A DNA stretch of 64,000 nucleotides. It comes from Halomonas sp. (lineage in GTDB: Bacteria > Pseudomonadota > Gammaproteobacteria > Pseudomonadales > Halomonadaceae). A model generated the notes under the pieces. It did no database searches, was not told where the DNA came from, and was given only the letters and a program-made list of their open reading frames with translations. Below are positions 1 through 22,158 of this stretch, piece by piece. Numbering within the stretch: position 1 is the stretch's first letter; each line of letters opens with the position of its first letter. The DNA lies in assembly GCF_003553625.1 (NCBI RefSeq), contig NZ_PWEV01000097.1; one strand, given 5' to 3'. The position numbers and the translations under genes were made by a program.

Positions 1-22
1 GCCGCTCACGTTTCTGGATGGC

Positions 23-304
23 TCAGAAGCTGATCTGATCTTCCAGATTGGCCACGGTGCCGTCTCCGATGCCGCTGACCCGCGTCAGGTCCTCGGGGCT
101 CTCGAAGTGGCCATTGGCCTCGCGATCCTCGATGATGGCAGCTGCCTTGGCCGGACCGATGCCCGGCAGTTCGGTAAGTAGTTCTGCATCGGCGGTATTG
201 ACGTTGATCGGCGCTACCTCCTGTGCCACGGCACCGAGCGGTGCCAGTCCAAGCAGCAGGGCGAGCAGCGCGCCGGCGAGTGCGTTACGTGTCGCTCCCT
301 TCAT
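23..304 (-). CDS. comEA: ComEA family helix-hairpin-helix DNA-binding protein
   Basis: Signal peptide, then INVNTA..ELLTELPGIGPAKAAAII...L.RVSGIG HhH motifs. Confidence 0.9.
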   Translation of the reverse strand: MKGATRNALAGALLALLLGLAPLGAVAQEVAPINVNTADAELLTELPGIGPAKAAAIIEDREANGHFESPEDLTRVSGIGDGTVANLEDQISF

Positions 305-557
305 GGTCGTGTCCTCTCTTGTTGCTTTCGTCGTGGAAGAGTGTCCTGCGGGACACTCTTCAAGCTAGCGGGTGTCGGTTAGCCTCAGTGTGGGTTGAAG
401 CCGCTAGCGCACATAGGTGAGGGCATACAGGCCAACGTGGCAAATCGCTTATTCCGCTGGCGTCATGGGTGACGAGTGCGCGGGCGATCTCGTACACGAG
501 CCGACGGCTCGGGCTGATACAATATGCCCCATGAGTCCCTTGTCTGGAGCCCGGCCC

Positions 558-7744: not shown

Positions 7745-9559
7745 TCATCCATGCAGGGCGCGATGAATTGCCTCGGCCAGGGTGGCGCTGATGCCTGGTG
7801 CCCGCGAGAGCTCCTCGCGGCTGGCCTGCTTGACCCCCTGGAGACCGCCGAAGAAACGCAGCAGCTCTCGCCTGCGCTTGGGCCCTACGCCGGGGATGCC
7901 CTCGAGCGTCGAGGTGCGGCGTGTCTTGTCGCGGCGGTTGCGGTGACCGGTGATGGCGAAGCGATGGGCTTCGTCGCGCACGTGCTGGATCAGGTGCAGG
8001 GCGGGGGAGGCGGGGTCGAGATCCAGTGCGCGGTCGACGGTTTCGAGAAACAGGGTCTCCAGGCCCGCCTTGCGCGTGGTGCCCTTGGCGACCCCCACCA
8101 GTGCCACATCGCTGACCCCGAGCTCGACAAACACCTCGCGGGCGAGGTTGAGCTGCCCCTTGCCGCCATCCACCAGCAGCACATCGGGGCGTTCCCCTTC
8201 ACCGTCGGCCAGGCGTCGAAAGCGTCGAGTCAGGGCCTGGCGCATGGCTGCATAGTCGTCGCCGGCGGCTACCCCTTCGATGTTGAAGCGGCGGTAGTCG
8301 GACTTGCGCGGCCCATTCTCATCGAACACCACGCAGGAGGCCACCGTCGCCTCCCCGTGGCTGTGGCTGATGTCGAAACATTCCAGGCGCCTGGGCGTGT
8401 CGGCCAGGCCGAGGGTTTCGCGCAGCGCCGAAAAGCGGCGCGTGAGCTGGACCTGGCTGGCCAGCTGGCCGGCCAGCTGCTGCTCGGCGTTGGTGACGGC
8501 CAGGGACTGCCACTGGGCGCGGTGTCCCCGAACCCGGTCGGTGATGCGCACGCGCTTGCCGGCGCGTTCGCTGAGCGCGGCGGCGATCAGCTCCCGATCC
8601 GCCAGGGCGTGACTGGTGATCAACTCCCGCGGAATCTCCCGGGTCTGTCCCAGATAGTACTGACTGACGAACTCCGCGAGCAACGCGTCGGCGGGCAGAT
8701 CGAGCCCGTTGGCGGGCGCATGGTGGCGGGCGCCCAGCAGCCGGCCGTGGCGGACGCTGAGCACCGAGATACAGAGCGTTCCGGGGCGGGTGGCCAGGGC
8801 GAAGATGTCGGCATCGCCGTCGCCGGTATCGACGAACTGACGCTGCTGTAGCTGGCGCAGCTGCTGAATCTGGTCGCGCAGCCGAGCGGCTTCCTCGAAG
8901 TCGAGTTCACGGCTGGCCGCCTCCATGGCCAACGTCAGCTCATGGGTGACCTGGTTGCTCTTGCCCTCCAGGCACTGCACGGCATGCTCCAGGTCGCGGC
9001 GGTAGTCCGCCTCGCTGATGTGGCCCACGCAGGGGGCGCTGCAGCGGTCGATCTGATACTGCAGGCAGGGCCGGGTGCGGTGAGCGAAGACGCTGTCCTC
9101 GCAGTTGCGGATACGAAAGATCTTCTGCATCAGCGACAGGCTCTCGCGCACTGCCAGGCTGCTGGGATAGGGGCCAAGATAGCGGCCATCGTCACGACGC
9201 GCCCGAGCCCGCTTGTACTCGAGGGCCGGGAAGGAGTGGCGGTCGGTGACGAAGACGAAAGGGTAGGACTTGTCGTCGCGCAGCAGGATGTTATACGGCG
9301 GGCGCAGCTCCTTGATCAGGGTCTGTTCCAGCAGCAGTGCCTCGGTCTCGCTGTTGGTCACCGTGACCTGGATGTCGGCGATGCGCGCCACCAGCGCCTG
9401 GGTCTTGGTGTTCAGTGCGCCGCGGAAATAGCTGGCCAGGCGCGCCTTGAGGCGCCTGGCCTTGCCCACATAGAGGGTGTCGCCCTGGGCATCCAGCATG
9501 CGGTAGACGCCCGGTGACTCGCTGGCGCTGCCGAGGAATTGACGGTAATCGAAGCTCAT
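7745..9559 (-). CDS. uvrC: Excinuclease ABC subunit C
   Basis: GIY-YIG N-terminus (PGVYRM..YVGKA), [23 protein letters not shown]-terminal HhH. Confidence 0.97.
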
Positions 9560-9629: not shown

Positions 9630-10277
9630 TCACTCAAGGCTGGCGAAGCCTTCCACCAGGCCGTGTCGAAGGCCGAGGTGGGTCAGTTCCACATCGGTCT
9701 GAACGCCCAGCTTGTCGAAGATACGGTAGCGGTAGGTGTTCACCGTCTTGGGGCTGAGGAAGAGCCGGTCGGAGATGTCGGCCACCTTCTGGCAGTTGAC
9801 GATCATCATCGCCACCTGCATTTCGCGCTGAGAGAGCTGGTCGAAGGGGTTCTCCGACGCATCGATGCGCGACAGCACCAGCCGCTGGGCGACCTCCGGG
9901 CTGACATAGCGCTGGCCATGGAAGACGCCGCGGATGGCCGAGACCATCTCGTCATGCTGGCAGTCCTTGCTGAGAAAGCCGAAGGCGCCGGCGTCGAGCA
10001 GCCGCTGGGCGAAGGCCTCCTCGAGCCAGGCGGTCAGCACCAGTACGCGGGTGTCCGGCTGGGTGCGGTGGATCTTGCGGGTGGCTTCCAGGCCGCCGAT
10101 CCCGGGCATGCGGATATCCATCAGCACCACGTCGGGCGAAAGGCGGCGGGTTTCGGCGATGGCGGTCTCACCGTCGGAGGCCTCACCAACCACGCTGATA
10201 CCCTCTTCGGCGTTCAGCAGGTGGGCGATGCTGGTCCTCACCAGGTGATGGTCGTCGGCAATCAATACCCGGATCAA
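9630..10277 (-). CDS. uvrY: UvrY/GacA family response regulator
   Basis: REC (ADDH, DIRMPGIGG) plus LuxR HTH LSPKTVNTYRYRIFDKL; upstream of uvrC; TTG start inferred. Confidence 0.93.
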   Translation of the reverse strand: MIRVLIADDHHLVRTSIAHLLNAEEGISVVGEASDGETAIAETRRLSPDVVLMDIRMPGIGGLEATRKIHRTQPDTRVLVLTAWLEEAFAQRLLDAGAFGFLSKDCQHDEMVSAIRGVFHGQRYVSPEVAQRLVLSRIDASENPFDQLSQREMQVAMMIVNCQKVADISDRLFLSPKTVNTYRYRIFDKLGVQTDVELTHLGLRHGLVEGFASLE

Positions 10278-10400
10278 GGCAGCGACTCCTGAGCGTCTTG
10301 GCTGATAGGAAAAGGCAGCGGGACATGAGCGCTCCCATGTGGAAGAGTGGCACAACTTCGGTGAAGGTGGAAAGTATCCTTGGGTTTTGCATTCGAGGGG

Positions 10401-12728: not shown

Positions 12729-13397
12729 CTAGGGCTGCTCGTCCATCCCCTGCTCGCGCTGGGCCTGGGACCAGCCGCCCAGGTCCTTGTAGCGGTTGAC
12801 CATGGCACAAAAGAGCTCGGCGGTGCGTTCGGTATCGTAGCGTGCCGAGTGGGCTTCACCGTTGTCGAAGGGAATGCCGGCGGCGCTGCAGGCCCTGGCC
12901 AGCACCGTCTGGCCGTACATCAGGCCAGCCAGTGAGGCGGTGTCGAAGCTGGAGAAGGGGTGAAAGGGGTTGCGTTTGATGCCGCAACGATTGACGGCGG
13001 CGTTCAGGAAACCGTGGTCGAAGGCGGCGTTGTGACCGACCAGCACGGCGCGGGTGCAGCCGTGGGCCTTGATCGCCTTGCGCACCGGCCGGAAGATCTC
13101 GCTCATCGCCTGGGCTTCGGAGAGCGCGACCTGCTGGCGAAGCGGGTCGTCGAGCCTGATGCCGGTGAAGTCCAGCGCCGATTGCTCCACCACGGCTCCC
13201 TCGAAGGGCCTCACGTGGAAGGCATAGGTGGAGTCGGGTACCAGGTTGCCCTGGGCATCCATGGTCAGGGTCACCGCGGCAATCTCCAGGATCGCATTGC
13301 GTTCGGCGTTGAAGCCGCCGGTCTCCACGTCTACCACGACCGGCAGGAAGCTGCGGAATCGCTGTGCCAGCAGGTCGCGGGCGATCGCCTCGCTCAT
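12729..13397 (-). CDS. rnt: Ribonuclease T
   Basis: [39 protein letters not shown]. Confidence 0.96.
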
Positions 13398-14912: not shown

Positions 14913-15227
14913 ATGTTCAAGAAACTGCTTTCCGGCCTGCTGGGTGGCGGCGACAGGCGTTCCGACGCTTCGGCGCCGGCCAATGCGCCCGCCGCCGAGC
15001 CGGTGGAGTACAAGGGCTATCGGATCATCTCCGAGCCCGCCGACCAGAACGGCCAGTATCGGGTGAGTGGCTGGATCCGCCGGGACGGGACCGACGGCGA
15101 ACGGCAGGAGCACCGCTTCGAGCGCTCCGACATGGTGTCCGGCCGCGAGGCCTGCGACCAGCTGATGGTGAGCAAGGCCCAGCGCTTCATCGACGAGGTG
15201 GGCGAGGAGATGTTCCGACCCCGCTAG
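14913..15227 (+). CDS. HlyU-family small protein
   Basis: MFKKLL..., PVEYKGYRI..P...GQYRVSGWI...H.FERSD...KAQRFIDE.GE.MF pattern. Confidence 0.75.
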   Translation: MFKKLLSGLLGGGDRRSDASAPANAPAAEPVEYKGYRIISEPADQNGQYRVSGWIRRDGTDGERQEHRFERSDMVSGREACDQLMVSKAQRFIDEVGEEMFRPR

Positions 15228-15458
15228 GTTCGGGTGCTTCGCCAGCTCGTGCAGTTCTCGGTGGAAGCCCAACGCTTGATGAGGGGGTTGGGCCTTCCCG
15301 AGATGGCTCGTTTCGACGAATGGTGGCCGGGACTCCCGGCCGGCCTGGGGCAAGACAAGCATGCCGCCGGGCGGCTGCGGCGCCATGCCCCTTTCGCCCA
15401 AGTGTTTCCGGCCGGGTCCGCCGCTACACTGGGTCGGTTACCGTTGCCCGGAGCTGCC

Positions 15459-16586
15459 ATGCGCCTGCTTCACCGAGCCTCCCCGTGGCGTTCCCTGTTC
15501 GCCGATAGCGAGTTTCCTGATCCCTCGCGGCTGCCGCCACTGCTTGCCCCGCTGCGCGACGCCCTGACCGAACTGGGGCCGGCGCCGACCCTTTCCGACG
15601 CCCACGCCTGGCAGCCTCGCCTGGTGGCGGCATTGATGCGCCTTGACCTTCCCGCCTGGCGCATCAGCCAGCTGATCAGCGATCACAACGACTGGCTCTA
15701 TCACCGTGCTATCCAGCTTGCCCAGAGCGAGATGGAGGGACAGGGCTGGGGCCCGCCTCCCGTCGCCTTCTGCGTGTTGATCATGGGGTCGGGGGCCCGC
15801 CAGGAGAGCCTGCTGGCGCCGGACCAGGACAACGGCATGATCATCGCCGACTACCCGGACAGCCGGCACACCGAGATCGACGGCTACTTTCAGTCGCTGG
15901 GCGAACGCTTCACCGACCGGCTGGACCGGGCCGGCATCCCCCTGTGCAGCGGCCATGTGATGGCGCGCTGGCCGATGTGGCGCAAGCGGATATCCGAGTG
16001 GGGAGAACAGCTGGCCATCTGGACCGCCGAGCGACGAACCAAGCGCGTTCAGCAGGCCAATATCCTGCTCGACTTCCGTCCGGTCTACGGTGAAGTGGCC
16101 CTGGCAGAGGCCCTGGCCGACCGGGTGGCCAGGCTGCTGCCCAAGGCGGGGTTGTTCCTGGATGAGATGGGGGTGCTGCTCGATGAGCTGCCGGTGGCCC
16201 TGGACCGCTTCGGTCGTCTGTCGGGCTCACTCGAGGGAGTGCCCCACGAGCACGCCATCAACCTCAAGCGGCAGGGGCTGCTGCCCTTGGTGGCCGCCGC
16301 TCGGCTGCTCTCCCTGCGCCATGGTGTGCGTGTGATCGACACCCGGGAGCGGTTGGCGGCCCTGGTCGTCAAGGAGGTACTGCCCGAGGCGCGCTGCCGA
16401 GCCTTGACCGCCGCCCTGGAGAGGCTGCAGGGGCTGCTGCTGGAGGAGCAGTGCCGTGTCCTCGGCACGGGGCATGGCGCCGACAGCTGGGTAGACGTGT
16501 CGCGGCTGGGCGAAGACCAGCGCATGCTGCTGCGCCTGGATCTTCAGCAGATCCGTCGCTTCAGGCGGCGGGCGAAGCGGGGTTAG
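15459..16586 (+). CDS. DUF294 / DUF294_C GlnD-like putative nucleotidyltransferase
   Basis: GSGARQES...DQDNG NTase motif, GIPLC.G.VMA, DFRPVYG, INLK..GL.PLV..AR..L, T.ERL; no cNMP/CBS domains seen. Confidence 0.85.
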   Translation: MRLLHRASPWRSLFADSEFPDPSRLPPLLAPLRDALTELGPAPTLSDAHAWQPRLVAALMRLDLPAWRISQLISDHNDWLYHRAIQLAQSEMEGQGWGPPPVAFCVLIMGSGARQESLLAPDQDNGMIIADYPDSRHTEIDGYFQSLGERFTDRLDRAGIPLCSGHVMARWPMWRKRISEWGEQLAIWTAERRTKRVQQANILLDFRPVYGEVALAEALADRVARLLPKAGLFLDEMGVLLDELPVALDRFGRLSGSLEGVPHEHAINLKRQGLLPLVAAARLLSLRHGVRVIDTRERLAALVVKEVLPEARCRALTAALERLQGLLLEEQCRVLGTGHGADSWVDVSRLGEDQRMLLRLDLQQIRRFRRRAKRG

Positions 16587-19333
16587 GATTCCGGCGCCTC
16601 CGGCAACTCCATGGTCAGGCAGGCGCCGCCGAGGGCGGGGGCATCCTCCACCCAGAGTCGCCCGCCCAGGTGAGCGACAATGCCGCGGCTGATGGGCAGC
16701 CCCAGGCCGCTGCCCCGGGGACGCCCGCGAATCTTCTCGGGGGTCTCGCCGGGGCGCTGGATCTGGTGGAACTTCTCGAACACGCGCTCGCGCTCTTCTT
16801 CGACGATCCCCGGGCCGTTGTCCTCCACCGCCAGACGGTAGTGGTTCTTGTAGCGTCCCAGTCGCAGCAGCACCTTCGGGCTGGTCTCGTCGGCGAACTT
16901 GCCGGCGTTGTCGAGCAGGTTGATGATCACCTGCTCCAGGCGATCCGGGTCGCCCACCACCGGCGCCTGCTCGACCTCGATCTGCACCTCCAGTGCCACG
17001 CCGCGATTCTCCTGCATGTGATGGACGGCATCGACGCTGTGGCGGGTCAGCTCCACCAGGTCCAGGTGCTGGGGGTTGAGCGTGAGCCGACCGCTCTCCA
17101 GGCGGGCCAGGTCGAGGATCTCCTCGATCAGCCGTGAGAGGCGCTGGCTCTCCTTGACCACCACGTTGAGAAAATGCACCCGCTTCTCGTCGGGCAGGTC
17201 GTCGCTGTCGCGCAGGATCTCGGCGAAGGCGCGGATCGAGGTGAGCGGGGTTCTCAGCTCGTGGCTGACCATGGCCACGAACTCATCCTTGAGGCGGTCG
17301 AGCTCCCGCAGCCGTTCGTTGGCGGCGCGAAGCTCTTCGCTGGCGCGGGCCAATTCCTCGGACTTCTGCTCCAGGCGACGGTTGACCTCCAGGGTCTCCG
17401 AGGTGGTGTCGAGGATACTGAGGATCGACTCGAGGTCCAGCGCCTCGCCGCGCACCACGGAGTTGATCAGCACGCGCGCCGAAGCGTTGCCCAGCGCCCC
17501 GGAGAGCGCCTGCTCGGCCCGGGCGATCATCTCCGGCGGGGCGGGCTGGTCGTTGCCGTATCCGTTGCCCACCTGGCTGTCGCCCTGCCCGGCGAAGACG
17601 CGGGCGGTAGCCCCCGTGCCCAGATAGCGGTCGAGGAGGTTGCGCAGCTCGCCACGGGTGGTCTGGCCGTGCCAGAGCGAGGTCTCCATCAGGCCGGGGT
17701 GCATGGCCTCGGTGAACAGCGCCGCCTGGGTCTGCTCCAGCGGGCTCTGGCGGGTAAACAGCGAAATCCCCACCAGCAGGCCGACGTTGGCGGTCAGGCT
17801 CCACAGCAGCGAGTGAGAGTAGATGTCCCAGTCTTCCAGGCCGAACAGGGCGTAGGGCCTCAGCCACTCCAGGCCGAAGGGGCCCAGCGTCAGGAAGGTG
17901 TCATCCACCCAGCCGGACTGGGCGAAGCCCGGGATGAGCAGGGTCCAGGCCCAGATCAGGGTGCCGGCGATGAGGCCCAGGGCAGCGCCGCGACGGGTGG
18001 CGCCTCGCCAGTACATGCCGATCAGCATGGCCGGAGCAAACTGGCTGGCGGCGGCAAAGGAGACCAGGCCGATGGTCACCAGGCTGTAGGAGTCGCCGAT
18101 CAGGGCATGGTAGAGGTAACCCAGCAGCAGTATCAGCACGATGGCCACGCGGCGAATGCCCAGCAGCCATCCGGCCAGCTCCCCGCGGCTGCCCAGATGC
18201 AGGCGCCGTGAGCGCAGCAGCAGCGGCATGATCAGCTGGTTGCTGACCATGGTGGAGAGCGCGATGGTCTCGACGATCACCATGCTGGTGGCCGCCGAGA
18301 GCCCGCCGATGAACACCAGCAGCGGCAGCGCCTCGAGTCCGGCCGACAGCGGCAGGGTCAGCACATAGCTGTCCGGGTCGCCGGCTGAGAGCAGCATGCC
18401 GGCCATGGCGATGGGAATCACGAACAGGTTGATGGCCAGCAGGTAGAGCGGAAAGAGCCAGCTGGCCCGTTTCAGGTGACGCTCATCGACGTTCTCCACC
18501 ACCAGCACCTGGAACTGGCGGGGGAGGGTGATGAAGGCCAGGAAGGCCAGCACCAGCATGCCGATCCAGCCGCTGGCGCCGCCCGGCACGGCATCCAGGC
18601 CCAGGGACCCCACCAGTTCGGGGCTGGCTGCCACCTGGGCGAACAGATCCCCGGGTCCGTGGAACATCACGAACACCACGAAGATCCCCACCGAGATAAA
18701 GGCCACCAGCTTGATCATCGACTCGAAGGCGATGGCCGCCACCATGCCCTCGTGGCGCTCGCTGGCATCCAGGTGGCGGGTGCCGAAGAGGATGATGAAT
18801 ACCGCCAGCACCAGCGCCACCCAGAACGACTTGTCGACCCAGAAGGCCTCATCGGCGAGGCTCAGCTCCGGGGCATGGGGGTAGTTGACCAGCACCGCAT
18901 GGCTCACGGTGATCGCCTTGAGCTGCAGGGTGATGTAGGGGGTGATGCCGATCAGCGCGATCAGCGCCACCAGGGCGCCCAGGCTCGAGCTCTTGCCGTA
19001 GCGGGCGCTGATGAAGTCGGCGATCGAGGTGATGCGCTGGACGCTGGCGATACGCACCATCTTGCGAATGAGGAAGGGCGACAGCAGCATGGCCAGCGTC
19101 GGACCGAGGTAGATCAGCAGGAAGCTGGGACCGTGCTCTGCGGCGCGACCCACGCTGCCGTAGAAGGTCCAGGCGGTGCAGTAGACGGCGATGGAGAGCG
19201 CATAGACGGTCGGCGAGCCGATCAGCGAGCGCCCCTGTTCGGCGCGGCGGTCACCCCAGGCCGCGATCACGAAGAGCAGCGCCAGGTAGCCGAAGGCGAC
19301 GCTCAGGACGACCGCATCGGTTCTCAACGCCAC
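16583..19333 (-). CDS. SLC5/SSS transporter-fused sensor histidine kinase (CbrA/CrbS-like, with STAC-like segment)
   Basis: YALSIAVYCTAWTFYGSVG SSS start, many TMs, AEQALSGALGNASARVLI, H-box VSHELRTPLTSI, NLLDNAGKF, DNGPGI, GSGLGL. Confidence 0.9.
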   Translation of the reverse strand: MALRTDAVVLSVAFGYLALLFVIAAWGDRRAEQGRSLIGSPTVYALSIAVYCTAWTFYGSVGRAAEHGPSFLLIYLGPTLAMLLSPFLIRKMVRIASVQRITSIADFISARYGKSSSLGALVALIALIGITPYITLQLKAITVSHAVLVNYPHAPELSLADEAFWVDKSFWVALVLAVFIILFGTRHLDASERHEGMVAAIAFESMIKLVAFISVGIFVVFVMFHGPGDLFAQVAASPELVGSLGLDAVPGGASGWIGMLVLAFLAFITLPRQFQVLVVENVDERHLKRASWLFPLYLLAINLFVIPIAMAGMLLSAGDPDSYVLTLPLSAGLEALPLLVFIGGLSAATSMVIVETIALSTMVSNQLIMPLLLRSRRLHLGSRGELAGWLLGIRRVAIVLILLLGYLYHALIGDSYSLVTIGLVSFAAASQFAPAMLIGMYWRGATRRGAALGLIAGTLIWAWTLLIPGFAQSGWVDDTFLTLGPFGLEWLRPYALFGLEDWDIYSHSLLWSLTANVGLLVGISLFTRQSPLEQTQAALFTEAMHPGLMETSLWHGQTTRGELRNLLDRYLGTGATARVFAGQGDSQVGNGYGNDQPAPPEMIARAEQALSGALGNASARVLINSVVRGEALDLESILSILDTTSETLEVNRRLEQKSEELARASEELRAANERLRELDRLKDEFVAMVSHELRTPLTSIRAFAEILRDSDDLPDEKRVHFLNVVVKESQRLSRLIEEILDLARLESGRLTLNPQHLDLVELTRHSVDAVHHMQENRGVALEVQIEVEQAPVVGDPDRLEQVIINLLDNAGKFADETSPKVLLRLGRYKNHYRLAVEDNGPGIVEEERERVFEKFHQIQRPGETPEKIRGRPRGSGLGLPISRGIVAHLGGRLWVEDAPALGGACLTMELPEAPES

Positions 19334-19346
19334 GCCTCCGTCATGC

Positions 19347-19541
19347 TCACTCCCCCGGCCGCTGCTCGAGCAGCCAGGCGGCCAGGGCGATCACCGTTCC
19401 CCATGCCACGAACAGATAGAGCGGCAGCCATGAGAGACCGTCGGCCGGGCGGTCGAACACCTGCACCAGCGGCGGTGTGAACAGCAGGGTGGCCAGCAGC
19501 ACCAGAGCCACCAGCCTCTCGCCGAGACGCGGGATCTTCAT
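19347..19541 (-). CDS. Small 2-TM protein, probable SSS partner subunit
   Basis: MKIPRLGERLVALVLLATLLFTPP...LPLYLFVAWGTVIALAAWLLE, directly upstream of the SLC5-kinase. Confidence 0.75.
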   Translation of the reverse strand: MKIPRLGERLVALVLLATLLFTPPLVQVFDRPADGLSWLPLYLFVAWGTVIALAAWLLEQRPGE

Positions 19542-19572
19542 GCCGGCACCCGCCGGTTCCAGGGGGAAAGGC

Positions 19573-21633
19573 TCATGAGGCGAAGGCGTCCTCCTTGTCC
19601 AGGGCGCTGGTCTGCAGGGCCAGCGCTTGCTCCAGGGTATCGATGCCGCGAGCCTCCAGGCGCGGCAGCAGCGCCAGCCACAGCTCGGCGGTGACCCGGG
19701 CGTCGCCCAGGGCGGTATGCCGGGTGCCCGGTGGGAAGCTGAGGCCGTAGCGCTCGGCCAGGCTGTCCAGGTCGTGGCCGTCCAGGCTGGCATCCAGGGC
19801 CCGCGAGATCAGCAGAGTGTCGAGCACCGGCATGTCCAGGGTGATCCCGGCCCCGGGCGGCTGCAGGGCCAGCAGGTCGAAGGCAGCGTTGTGGGCGAGA
19901 ATCACCGCGTCGCCGACGTAATCGCGAAAGCGCGGCAGCACCACCGGCAGCGGTGGGGCGCCCTCGACGTCGGCGTCGGTAATGCCATGAATCGCGGTGC
20001 TGGCCGGGGGAATCGGCTTGCCGGGATCGACGCGTACGTCGAACACCTCGCTGGCCAACAGCCGGGTGTTGACCACGCGACAGGCACCAATGCTGATCAC
20101 GGTGTCGCCGCGGCGCAGTTCCAGGCCGGTGGTTTCGGTATCGAAGGAGACCACCTCCAGGGCGCGCAGCGGGCGGGCCGCCAGTTCGGCGTCGGGGTGG
20201 GGCAGCTCGGCGATGCCGAAATCATGAAATTCGGGGCGTGGCGGGGTGGCCGGCCTCGGGGCGCCTACCCGTTCGGTGGCGGGTAGCGGGAGTCGTAGCC
20301 GGGCGTGGACACCGTCGCTATCGGCCAGGCTCCAGGCGTCGCTGGCGTGCTGGCGCAAGACGTCGGCCACCCGCGGCGAGAGCGGCAGGTCGTCCAGGCG
20401 CAGCTGCTGCCACTCGTTGAGCTGGCGCTCGCCGAGCGGCGCTCCGCGCCAGATCAGGTCGAGGTAGACGCGCTTGTTGCCCAGGCAGACCTCCCCTTCG
20501 AGCTCCTGCGGGTCTCGATGCTCCTGCAGCTGCTCGATGAGCGAGCCGAGCAGCACCAGCAGCGGCATGGCGTCGCCCTTGAACCAGGCGGGCATGCCGA
20601 CCGGCACTACCGTGACCTGTCCGGCACGTCGCTCGTTGAGGGCCTCCCACAGGTCGTTGGACCACAGCGGCACCAGTCGCTCCCCCTCGTGCTGCATCTG
20701 CTCCACCAGGGCGGCAAGCTGCTCGATATCCTCGCCCAGAGATTGGCTCTCCTCATCGATCACTTTTTCCAGGCGCTGGCGCATCTCACCCGCGGCGCCA
20801 CCCAGGGAGGTCAGGGCGTCGGCCGCGCTGGTCAGGCTGGCGCTGTGACGGCGCAGGCGCGGCAGGCTATCGAGCAGATCGGCGCGGGCGCCCATCTCGC
20901 TTGTCCAGGCGGCGGTGGTGTCGCTCAGGGTCAGCAGGGTCTCGCCGTGGCTGCCCGGTACCCGGCGCATCACGGCGCGCAGCCAGCGCTCGTCGCAGGG
21001 CACCAGCACCTCCCGCGGCGCGCCGTCCCGGGGCAGCTGGCCCAGGGCGTCCTGCAGGCTGACGGCGGGCAGCAGGCTTTCGAGACGCTTGCCGAGCCCC
21101 AGTCCATGATGGTCTTCGAAGAGACGTTCGGCCGCCTGGTTGAAGAGCAGCACCCGGCGGTGCTGATCGCAGAGCAGCAGGGGAGTGTCGAGGACCTGGA
21201 GCAGGGTCTCGAGCTCCTGACGGATGCGGGCAGCGCTGCGCGCGCCCTCGGCGTGAGCGGTGGCCAGACGGCCGCGGTCCGTTCGCCAGGCATCCCGCAC
21301 CTTGACCAGATCAGGCCCCAGGGCGCGCAGCCAGCCTTCGGGGGGGTAATCCTCCCTGGCATCCGGATTGGCCACCAGGCGGGCGAGTTGCACCTGCAGG
21401 TGACGCAGGGGGGTGAACAGCTGGCGCTCCAGCAGCAGGCCCACCAGGAAGATGGTGCCGCCTCCGGAGAAGCAGCCCAGCCACAGCACCAGACGAGCCA
21501 GACCCGTGGGCTGGAAGAGGGTGTCGAGCCACAGGGCGAAGGTGGCACCGCCGAAGATGCTGACGCCACTGAGCAGCAGCCAGAGGCCGATCAGCCGCTG
21601 GCGGCGGGGCAGTCCTGAGAGACGTCGAGCCAT
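19573..21633 (-). CDS. Membrane-anchored PAS / degenerate kinase-like / DEDDh (DnaQ-like) exonuclease fusion
   Basis: 2 TM, coiled coil, PAS (LLLCD...VLLFNQAAERLF), C-terminal FDTETTG, AHNAAFD, LDTL, HTALGDA. Confidence 0.85.
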   Translation of the reverse strand: MARRLSGLPRRQRLIGLWLLLSGVSIFGGATFALWLDTLFQPTGLARLVLWLGCFSGGGTIFLVGLLLERQLFTPLRHLQVQLARLVANPDAREDYPPEGWLRALGPDLVKVRDAWRTDRGRLATAHAEGARSAARIRQELETLLQVLDTPLLLCDQHRRVLLFNQAAERLFEDHHGLGLGKRLESLLPAVSLQDALGQLPRDGAPREVLVPCDERWLRAVMRRVPGSHGETLLTLSDTTAAWTSEMGARADLLDSLPRLRRHSASLTSAADALTSLGGAAGEMRQRLEKVIDEESQSLGEDIEQLAALVEQMQHEGERLVPLWSNDLWEALNERRAGQVTVVPVGMPAWFKGDAMPLLVLLGSLIEQLQEHRDPQELEGEVCLGNKRVYLDLIWRGAPLGERQLNEWQQLRLDDLPLSPRVADVLRQHASDAWSLADSDGVHARLRLPLPATERVGAPRPATPPRPEFHDFGIAELPHPDAELAARPLRALEVVSFDTETTGLELRRGDTVISIGACRVVNTRLLASEVFDVRVDPGKPIPPASTAIHGITDADVEGAPPLPVVLPRFRDYVGDAVILAHNAAFDLLALQPPGAGITLDMPVLDTLLISRALDASLDGHDLDSLAERYGLSFPPGTRHTALGDARVTAELWLALLPRLEARGIDTLEQALALQTSALDKEDAFAS

Positions 21634-22016
21634 CAGGAGACCTCGGCGAGCAGGGCCTTGACCTTGTCGACCAGCGCCTGGGTGGAAAAGGGTTTGGTGA
21701 TGTAATCGTCGGCACCCAGCGCCAGCCCCTTCTCGCGCTCCACTTCACGGCCGTGCGCGGTGAGCATGATGATCGGGAGGCGGGCATGGTCGGGGTCAGC
21801 GCGAAGGCGTTCCAGCACATCGAAGCCGCTGATGCCTGGCAGGCTGATGTCGAGCAGCATCAGGTCCGGAGTGCCCTCGGCGACGCGTGCGAGGGCGCTT
21901 TCGCCATCCTCGGCGGTGACCACGTCGAAGCCGGCCTGCTGCATCAGGAACTCCAGCGACAGGACGATATTGGGCTCATCGTCGACCACCAGAACCTTGG
22001 CCATGGCGTTCTCCAT
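21633..22016 (-). CDS. Single-domain response regulator (receiver only)
   Basis: [27 protein letters not shown]; stop overlaps the start of the next gene (TGATG). Confidence 0.92.
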
Positions 22017-22158
22017 TTCTCGTTGTCGTCATTGTTGTCTTAGAGACACTTTCGACATCATTCTAGTGCCCGGTCGGTGCACAGCAAAGGCGACCTTGGC
22101 AGGACATCGGTGGCAATCGGCGTTAGGGTGCGGTAACGATTCGACGCGAGGAAACACC

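Follow-up and report, generated by a model that had tools for sequence, protein, structure and literature searches.

The stretch of DNA analysed here (the window, 64,000 nucleotides of contig NZ_PWEV01000097.1, assembly GCF_003553625.1) comes from a Halomonas metagenome-assembled genome (MAG) of 3.1 Mb in 335 contigs that is 89% complete, and DNA near-identical to it is present in soda-lake and salt-lake metagenomes. Five of its genes encode a DUF294 nucleotidyltransferase (NTase), an SLC5/STAC-type sensor histidine kinase, a small membrane hairpin, a membrane-anchored sensor protein that ends in a DEDDh exonuclease domain (hereafter sensor-exonuclease), and a receiver-only response regulator (Table 1). 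They constitute a real, widely conserved and experimentally unstudied module, in which an SLC5/STAC two-component system is combined with a known but unexplained DUF294/exonuclease pair. A first-pass annotation of the sequence had placed the five genes at the same coordinates with overlaps of 1 bp and 4 bp, and both overlaps are found in the sequence: the receiver stop codon and the sensor-exonuclease start codon have one base in common (TGATG), and the stop codons of the NTase and kinase genes overlap tail to tail at 16583-16586. The small gene and the kinase gene are separated by 13 nt, and the GTG that starts the kinase gene is preceded at 8 nt by a Shine-Dalgarno sequence, GGAGG. The annotation had also remarked on the absence of a DNA-binding output, and Pfam detects no DNA-binding domain encoded within the five-gene cluster.

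Table 1. Genes of the module, in nucleotide positions of the window, and regions of the sensor-exonuclease, in residues.
Feature	Position	Strand	Basis
DUF294 nucleotidyltransferase (short form), 375 aa	15459..16586	+	Pfam DUF294 1e-37, DUF294_C 1.5e-27
SLC5/STAC-type sensor histidine kinase, 916 aa	16583..19333	-	Pfam HisKA, HATPase_c, weak SSF; 10ED match
Two-helix membrane hairpin, 64 aa, CbrX-like by position/topology	19347..19541	-	Sequence, tblastn recurrence
Membrane-anchored sensor-exonuclease, 686 aa	19573..21633	-	Pfam PAS_4, RNase_T; AlphaFold2 model
Receiver-only response regulator, 127 aa	21633..22016	-	Pfam Response_reg 6.6e-32
Transmembrane hairpin, almost no periplasmic loop	residues about 10-66		686-aa protein, model
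Long helices	residues to 147		686-aa protein, model
PAS domain	residues 148-238		686-aa protein, model
DHp-like two-helix hairpin	residues 240-315		686-aa protein, model
CA-like alpha/beta domain	residues 321-452		686-aa protein, model
Disordered linker with conserved RPEFxDF motif	residues about 453-485		686-aa protein, model
DEDDh exonuclease, DnaQ fold	residues 486-686		686-aa protein, model

The sensor-exonuclease was modelled with AlphaFold2 on an alignment of 45 diverse homologues (mean pLDDT 85). Foldseek matched the front part of the model to the PAS-histidine kinases WalK, VicK, YF1, ThkA and DivL (4q20), the alignments to the first four spanning 350-458 columns, and the back part to DnaQ domains, among them Pol III epsilon and that of S. 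thermophilus, at TM-scores (target-normalised) of 0.81-0.85 and a root-mean-square deviation of 2.5-2.9 Å. The closest solved folds of the exonuclease part are Pol III epsilon, Exo X and the DinG/PolC exonuclease domains. All five DEDDh catalytic residues (D498, E500, D586, H639 and D644) are invariant in the 45 sequences. The phospho-acceptor of a histidine kinase is lost: the H-box His position (query 258) is occupied among the 45 homologues by E in 23, D in 7, Q in 4 and R in 3, and by Pro in the window protein, while the LRxPxANLRAAAE sequence downstream of it is retained. A HATPase_c profile gave no match to the 686-aa protein even at E<=10, and the consensus of the CA-like domain is without the N-box Asn and the GxGxG box, although, when read by eye, an Asp at the G1 position is perhaps kept. 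Because the H-box His is lost, HATPase_c is not matched and the five DEDDh residues are invariant, the protein is a pseudokinase fused to an intact exonuclease, in agreement with the domain calls of the first-pass annotation, which had already used the word pseudokinase.

Two short regions of the sensor part stand out by their conservation. The first is the H-box-like helix, which apart from the linker motif is the best-conserved stretch of the sensor region (0.59 vs 0.33-0.51 elsewhere), and this is what a retained receiver-docking surface would be expected to look like. The second is the linker motif itself, R-P-E-F-x-D-F at residues 466-472 (window 20218-20240, minus strand), which is nearly invariant (majority-residue fraction 0.90) within the low-confidence linker between the CA-like and exonuclease domains. 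It is absent from the stand-alone exonuclease paralogue of the same genome and may be a docking or autoinhibitory element.

The kinase has the N-terminal SLC5 (SSS) symporter-like domain typical of the SLC5/STAC kinases CbrA, CrbS/MxtR and RpuS. Its 13 transmembrane helices are followed by a putative STAC-like linker, HisKA (5e-22) and HATPase_c (2e-23) domains, with neither PAS domains nor a C-terminal receiver; the Pfam SSF match is weak (3e-5), and residues 10-537 match the solved SLC5-STAC structure of CbrA (10ED) at 6e-78. Residues 8-686 are 42% identical to the CrbS-like kinase of the same genome, in an alignment that continues across residues 545-655, the putative STAC linker region, beyond the end of the 10ED match at residue 537. 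The HisKA histidine and the ATP-binding boxes are intact in the translation (SHELRTPL H-box, NLLDNA, DNGPGI and GSGLGL). Known kinases of this type have a cognate DNA-binding regulator, either LuxR-type (CrbR), sigma-54 type (CbrB) or RpuR; no such regulator adjoins the window kinase, and the only response regulator encoded in the cluster is the bare 127-aa receiver. Despite the small size of the 64-aa gene, tblastn picked up counterparts of it at 20 of 80 loci, in each case upstream of the kinase gene. In Pseudomonas, CbrX is a 58-aa hairpin encoded upstream of cbrA, and cryo-EM places it on TM3 and TM8 of the CbrA SLC5 domain (PMC13022988); by position and topology, the 64-aa protein is a candidate CbrX-like accessory peptide.

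The receiver has the features of a single-domain, CheY-like protein, with the acidic pocket, phospho-acceptor Asp and Thr/Lys switch all present. Response_reg covers residues 8-120 of 127, and Pfam finds no second domain and hence no output domain. In an alignment of 21 homologues D13, D56, T86 and K108 are invariant, D12 and Y105 are nearly so, and mean column identity is unusually high (59%).

Linkage of these genes was assessed by a scan of one genome per species, which yielded 80 sensor-exonuclease loci in Gamma-, Alpha- and Betaproteobacteria, Magnetococcales, Nitrospirota, Chloroflexota, Desulfobacterota, Acidobacteriota and one actinobacterial MAG. Hosts include the acetate-storing wastewater organisms Accumulibacter, Competibacter and Dechloromonas. 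The family as a whole comprises 768 clusters at 50% identity (E<1e-30), nearly all of whose members are about 700 aa long. At 43 loci the sensor-exonuclease homologue is flanked by 8 kb or more in either direction; a receiver gene is present in 37 of them, an SLC5 kinase gene in 32, a DUF294 gene in 37, and all three in 29; since the genomes are kin, these counts describe linkage and are not independent trials. At 61 of 76 loci the receiver gene immediately precedes the sensor-exonuclease gene in the same orientation. With the sensor part as query, homologues were found in 14 of 271 genera (300 gammaproteobacterial genomes sampled), and their flanks hold the receiver, sensor-exonuclease and SLC5 kinase genes together, often with the small gene as well. 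Thus, the co-occurrence across genomes that the first-pass annotation had set as a check on its proposal extends over several phyla, and recurrence in 80 loci rules out chance adjacency. Gene order differs between loci (kinase-receiver-sensor-NTase; receiver-sensor-small-kinase with a convergent NTase, as in the window; NTase-kinase-receiver-sensor), and this variation around a receiver/sensor-exonuclease core suggests selection on linkage rather than frozen synteny.

The genes that recur beside the module point towards small carboxylates. SSF-type symporter genes occur at 19 loci and acetyl-CoA synthetase (Acs) genes at 11, and a YjcH/DUF4212-like small membrane protein is also a recurrent neighbour. 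The first-pass annotation had anticipated frequent proximity to actP and acs, and the module is indeed often found next to acs and SSF-type symporter genes. The same annotation had looked for a possible target in the acyl-CoA synthetase/LiuR cluster close by, an idea that comparison does not support, as this cluster accompanies the module only where Halomonas synteny brings the two together.

Two variant arrangements were observed. Six loci in Rhodobacterales (L057, L063, L068, L074, L085 and L113, including Rhodobacter capsulatus DSM 1710) have a combination of NTase, receiver and sensor-exonuclease in which the receiver is more diverged (42-50% identity). Tandem DUF294 genes follow the sensor-exonuclease gene in six Azonexaceae/Rhodocyclaceae loci (L058, L062, L076, L079, L100 and L102), a short one (about 355-400 aa) preceding a long cNMP/CBS one (about 650 aa).

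Translation of the window NTase from the ATG at 15459 gives 375 aa and from an alternative GTG at 15234 gives 450 aa, and neither reading contains a cyclic nucleotide (cNMP)-binding or CBS sensor domain. Short DUF294 forms of 355-381 aa recur next to sensor-exonucleases. In 34 homologues, residues G110, S111, R114, E116, D122, Q123, D124, N125 and D205 are invariant. A PDB search with the single sequence found no match, and a profile search with the family was swamped by CBS-domain matches from longer homologues. Using the AlphaFold2 model (pLDDT 92.7, pTM 0.90), the only significant PDB folds found by Foldseek are the AT and AR domains of GlnE and DrrA bound to Rab8a (3k7d, 1v4a and 6yx5; probability 1.0, TMq 0.59-0.60, identity 14-16%), GlnE and DrrA being enzymes that transfer AMP to proteins. 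Aminoglycoside NTases were marginal matches and RNA uridylyltransferases insignificant (TUTase probability 0.1). The GlnE-like label given in the first-pass annotation therefore holds at the level of fold, and the DUF294_C domain has been classed alongside the helical domains of GlnD, GlnE and DrrA (PMC3710099). Judged from the model and these relatives, the protein may be a GlnE/DrrA-like transferase of nucleoside monophosphate (NMP) to proteins. In a quick tree, from which four rows (OWNC143, L129, L137 and L149) were disregarded for very long branches and odd composition, being probably antisense open reading frames (ORFs), a single supported clade unites 23 of the 34 module-linked NTases; the window NTase sits in a clade of eight module-linked rows.

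The genome encodes three SLC5 kinase systems in all, and four systems of this kind if the canonical NTase/exonuclease pair is included. A 1314-aa CrbS-like hybrid SLC5 kinase (contig C315) is accompanied by a divergent LuxR-type regulator and acs, and a CbrA-like kinase (contig C132) adjoins a sigma-54 regulator. The sole adjacent partner of the window kinase is the bare receiver, together with the second NTase/exonuclease pair of the genome. Because the other two SLC5 kinases each adjoin their own DNA-binding regulator, the window genes appear to be a dedicated third system. In the canonical pair (contig C143, L127:3-2533), a cNMP-CBS-DUF294 gene of at least 602 aa, which runs to the contig end, overlaps the gene for a 241-aa RNase_T-type exonuclease by 4 bp; a convergent gene for a GGDEF-EAL protein follows the pair. 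DUF294 is present in 122 of 401 sampled Pseudomonadota genomes, and among the best loci 15 of 29 other long DUF294 genes have a stand-alone exonuclease gene within 1.5 kb. Pairing of the NTase with an exonuclease is therefore the general rule, and the window holds its kinase-wired variant.

Pseudomonas counterparts of the canonical pair have been reported. PP_0354/PP_0353 (Pflu5625; PA3233/PA3232 beside actP) belong to the genes with the strongest dependence on MxtR/ErdR (CrbS/CrbR), and PP_0353/PP_0354 and PA3232-PA3235 are induced together with actP under MxtR/ErdR; mutants of this type have moderate defects only, on propionate or pyruvate (PMC5715377; PMC9927547; bioRxiv 10.64898/2026.09.07.749794; PMC9765439). 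Protein nucleotidylation by the canonical pair has been put forward by the authors as speculation, without data (PMC5715377; bioRxiv 10.64898/2026.09.07.749794). The first-pass annotation presented the system as a candidate undescribed one. This stands for the fused, receiver-linked module, since in the literature searched we found no paper on a sensor-fused exonuclease or on its receiver link, and both the pseudokinase-exonuclease fusion and the receiver link in place of a transcription factor are undescribed in the searchable literature. It does not stand for the DUF294/exonuclease pair as a target of MxtR/ErdR (PMC5715377; bioRxiv 10.64898/2026.09.07.749794) or for CbrX as a partner of an SLC5 kinase (PMC13022988).

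Wiring from the kinase through the receiver to the pseudokinase-exonuclease is well supported by this context; the biochemical steps, the chemistry of writing and erasing among them, and the target we infer. The SLC5/STAC kinase and its CbrX-like hairpin would sense a small carboxylate of the acetate, pyruvate or propionate type via the symporter-like domain, leading to autophosphorylation, and the phosphate would pass to the adjacent single-domain receiver. The phosphorylated receiver could then dock on the H-box-like DHp helix of the membrane-anchored pseudokinase, as DivK~P docks on the His-less kinase DivL in Caulobacter, and docking would switch the fused DnaQ-type exonuclease domain. On the opposite side, the NTase would attach an NMP or a short NMP chain to a shared substrate, from which the exonuclease would hydrolyse the phosphodiester to release 5'-NMP. 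The likeliest substrate would be a membrane-proximal protein of carboxylate uptake or activation, for example an SSF/ActP-type symporter, Acs, or the kinase complex itself. A link to carboxylates is suggested because SSF symporter and Acs genes recur at the loci, the canonical pair is induced with actP under MxtR/ErdR, and its mutants are impaired on propionate or pyruvate. A protein is the probable target because GlnE AT, GlnE AR and DrrA with Rab8a are the only significant solved relatives of the NTase model, and NTase and exonuclease are probably coupled because the canonical genes overlap by 4 bp, a stand-alone exonuclease gene is near 15 of 29 other long DUF294 genes, and most module-linked NTases (23 of 34) group in one clade. 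As a whole, a non-transcriptional two-component module running from kinase to receiver to pseudokinase-exonuclease, which opposes the NTase on a shared nucleotidylated substrate, is the interpretation we tentatively prefer, at somewhat less than an even chance.

A more specific version makes the DnaQ-fold exonuclease a protein de-nucleotidylase, or a trimmer of protein-bound oligo-NMP, opposite the DUF294 writer, with its activity set directly by a phosphorelay from the kinase via a receiver that docks on a dead kinase, and thus proposes a new reversible protein modification controlling carboxylate transport or activation in many phyla. We regard this version as rather unlikely. For either version, removal of NMP by a DEDDh enzyme is chemically reasonable, since the bond cleaved when Tyr/Ser/Thr-O-AMP yields 5'-AMP is of the kind cleaved when a 3'-terminal nucleotide is released.

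Several points weigh against nucleotidylation of a shared protein under control of the kinase. To our knowledge, no DEDDh enzyme is known to strip proteins of NMP, and the folds of the known de-AMPylases (the GlnE AR domain, SidD and Fic) are different. GlnE AR moreover shows that writing and erasing can both be done by an NTase fold, and reversal thus needs no exonuclease. A resemblance in fold at a TM-score of about 0.6 with 14-16% identity leaves the substrate class of the NTase unfixed. Binding of the receiver to the pseudokinase is a prediction, and the PAS domain could instead be the main regulator of the nuclease. Parts of the module can be missing: the SLC5 kinase is absent from the flanks of the Rhodobacterales variant (up to 10 kb, shortened by contig ends at L063, L068 and L113), and DUF294 is missing beside the module in some close relatives (L039, L042, L044 and L053). 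In L039 (Halomonas sp. MAG) and L042 (Halomonas casei), a HlyU-like gene directly follows the kinase gene and the fetched flanks contain no DUF294 gene, so that some Halomonas have dropped the NTase from the module or had it relocated. Finally, the published mutants of the canonical pair show mild phenotypes only (PMC5715377; PMC9927547; bioRxiv 10.64898/2026.09.07.749794; PMC9765439).

The main rival is tailing and trimming of RNA 3' ends, in which the NTase adds untemplated nucleotides to mRNA, small RNA or tRNA-like molecules, the exonuclease trims them, and the kinase and receiver determine which activity prevails, so that genes of carboxylate use would be controlled post-transcriptionally. 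It is favoured by the precedents of the exonuclease family and disfavoured by the fold of the NTase, and we consider it unlikely. DEDDh enzymes with established roles are nucleic acid 3'-5' exonucleases, which include the closest folds named above, and the catalytic residues of the window domain are invariant; pol-beta-type NTases include poly(A) and CCA-adding enzymes; and turnover of tRNA ends by CCA-adding enzyme and RNase T provides a known analogue. The window NTase, however, is unlike NTases that act on RNA, with a TUTase match at a probability of only 0.1 vs 1.0 for GlnE and DrrA, Pfam finds no RNA-binding domain in any module protein, and a membrane-anchored nuclease would be an odd choice for trimming RNA tails. 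Henriquez et al. speculated that PP_0353 degrades mRNAs of central metabolism (PMC9927547), whereas the kinship of DUF294_C to the helical domains of GlnD, GlnE and DrrA (PMC3710099) argues in the other direction.

It is also conceivable, and distinctly less probable, that the kinase signals mainly to a distant DNA-binding regulator, that the receiver is a phosphate sink or connector, and that the exonuclease and NTase are merely co-regulated with them, as PP_0353/PP_0354 are under MxtR/ErdR. Single-domain receivers can indeed be phosphate sinks, the canonical pair in Pseudomonas is a transcriptional target and not a signalling partner of an SLC5 kinase, and a minority of related loci (L028, L060, L088 and L110) have a second regulator-like receiver gene nearby. 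Fusion of the exonuclease to a His-less DHp/CA scaffold, the only known use of which is in kinase-type signalling contacts, is difficult to reconcile with a passenger role, as is the receiver gene that abuts the sensor-exonuclease gene at most loci and overlaps it by 1 bp in the window. Moreover, the window kinase has a bare receiver only, whereas the other two SLC5 kinases of the genome each have an adjacent DNA-binding regulator. Very improbable is synthesis by the NTase of a linear or cyclic (oligo)nucleotide messenger that the exonuclease would degrade, as oligoribonuclease (Orn) does pGpG, with the kinase and receiver tuning its level: although the pol-beta NTase core is common to cGAS/DncV/OAS-type signal synthases, Orn belongs to the DEDDh enzymes and canonical DUF294 proteins carry nucleotide-sensing cNMP-binding and CBS domains, the significant fold matches of the NTase include no CD-NTase, OAS or cyclase, the neighbourhoods contain no conserved candidate for a messenger receptor or effector, and DUF294_C is of the substrate-binding kind found in GlnE and DrrA.

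The surroundings of the module were examined for further components and for regulatory elements. It is flanked by a HlyU-like ORF and argG on one side and by genes for a glutathione S-transferase (GST) and an acyl-CoA synthetase on the other. The acyl-CoA synthetase, GST, argG and HlyU-like genes were considered as parts of the system and rejected, as they were found with it only in close Halomonas relatives or nowhere else; together with the 3-hydroxyisobutyrate dehydrogenase gene, these window neighbours are not conserved with the module. The HlyU-family ORF (PF10115, 104 aa, 14913-15227, plus strand) ends 230 bp upstream of the NTase start and has this synteny in Halomonas only. A second DEDDh gene of the window, unrelated to the module, encodes a 222-aa RNase_T-family protein between argF and argG (12729-13397, minus strand) and is probably rnt. 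A uvrY/gacA-type LuxR-family response regulator gene adjoins uvrC in the usual arrangement, outside the module (9630-10355 and 7745-9559, minus strand).

A scan for promoters and terminators found nothing exceeding shuffled expectation, and reading by eye against the example sites of PMC5715377 revealed no convincing match to a CrbR (ACTU) operator upstream of the receiver or NTase genes. The AT-richer operon leader contains a perfect inverted repeat, TGTCT-CTA-AGACA, at 22036-22048 (minus strand), 20-32 nt upstream of the receiver ATG, which does not match the published CrbR (ACTU) sites. In Logan contigs, two RNA-labelled libraries of alkaline-lake type contain short near-identical pieces of the NTase gene, the kinase gene and the receiver/sensor junction; with patchy coverage and possible DNA carry-over, this is no more than a hint that the module is expressed.

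SLC5/STAC kinases such as CbrA and CrbS/MxtR are central regulators of carbon use, and the DUF294 and exonuclease pair that is most dependent on one of them is still unexplained because the mutant phenotypes are mild. The module places a version of this pair directly behind a kinase and receiver, which provides a concrete wiring that can be tested. An answer would give thousands of genes an annotation and might add a class of enzyme output to those of two-component systems. If the exonuclease does prove to be a de-nucleotidylase controlled by the phosphorelay, SLC5/STAC kinases would have their first described output other than transcription.

Five known systems share features with the module. 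The opposition of RNase T and the CCA-adding enzyme likewise involves a DEDDh exonuclease and a pol-beta-type NTase, which there act against each other on one phosphodiester end; however, both act on tRNA, are not co-encoded, kinase-linked or membrane-bound, and the fold of the window NTase is unlike that of CCA and poly(A) enzymes. The best solved relatives of the NTase belong to systems of reversible protein nucleotidylation, GlnE (ATase) with glutamine synthetase and DrrA/SidM and SidD with Rab1, and their G-S...D-x-D motif is kept in the window protein despite the low identity. Their erasers are of other kinds than the DEDDh exonuclease of the window: the AR domain of GlnE is itself of NTase fold, and SidD is a PPM phosphatase.

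DivL and DivK of Caulobacter likewise join a DHp/CA scaffold without the phospho-acceptor His to a single-domain receiver, and DivL is among the fold matches of the sensor part, although the analogy is one of mechanism and not of membership. DivL, which modulates the kinase CckA, carries Tyr where the His would be and lacks an enzyme as output, whereas the window scaffold bears a DEDDh exonuclease and lies in a probable carboxylate-sensing context. In the CbrX-CbrA/CbrB system of Pseudomonas, the SLC5-STAC structure matches the window kinase at 6e-78, and a gene for a small membrane hairpin of two helices likewise directly precedes that of the kinase; CbrA, however, senses histidine and signals to the sigma-54 activator CbrB, in contrast to the receiver-only partner and carboxylate context of the window kinase.

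CrbS/CrbR (MxtR/ErdR) of Vibrio and Pseudomonas, taken together with PP_0354/PP_0353, shares several parts with the module: an SLC5/STAC kinase tied to the use of small carboxylates, a DUF294 NTase with an RNase_T/DnaQ-type exonuclease, and associated acs and symporter genes. Unlike CrbS, the kinase of the window is devoid of PAS domains and of a receiver at its C-terminus, and its partner is a bare receiver instead of the LuxR-type CrbR. The window NTase lacks the cNMP and CBS domains of PP_0354, and the window exonuclease is fused to a membrane-anchored pseudokinase, whereas PP_0353 stands alone. The two systems also differ in how the pair is connected to the kinase, which is by transcriptional control for the targets of MxtR/ErdR and by clustering of the genes with the kinase gene in the window.

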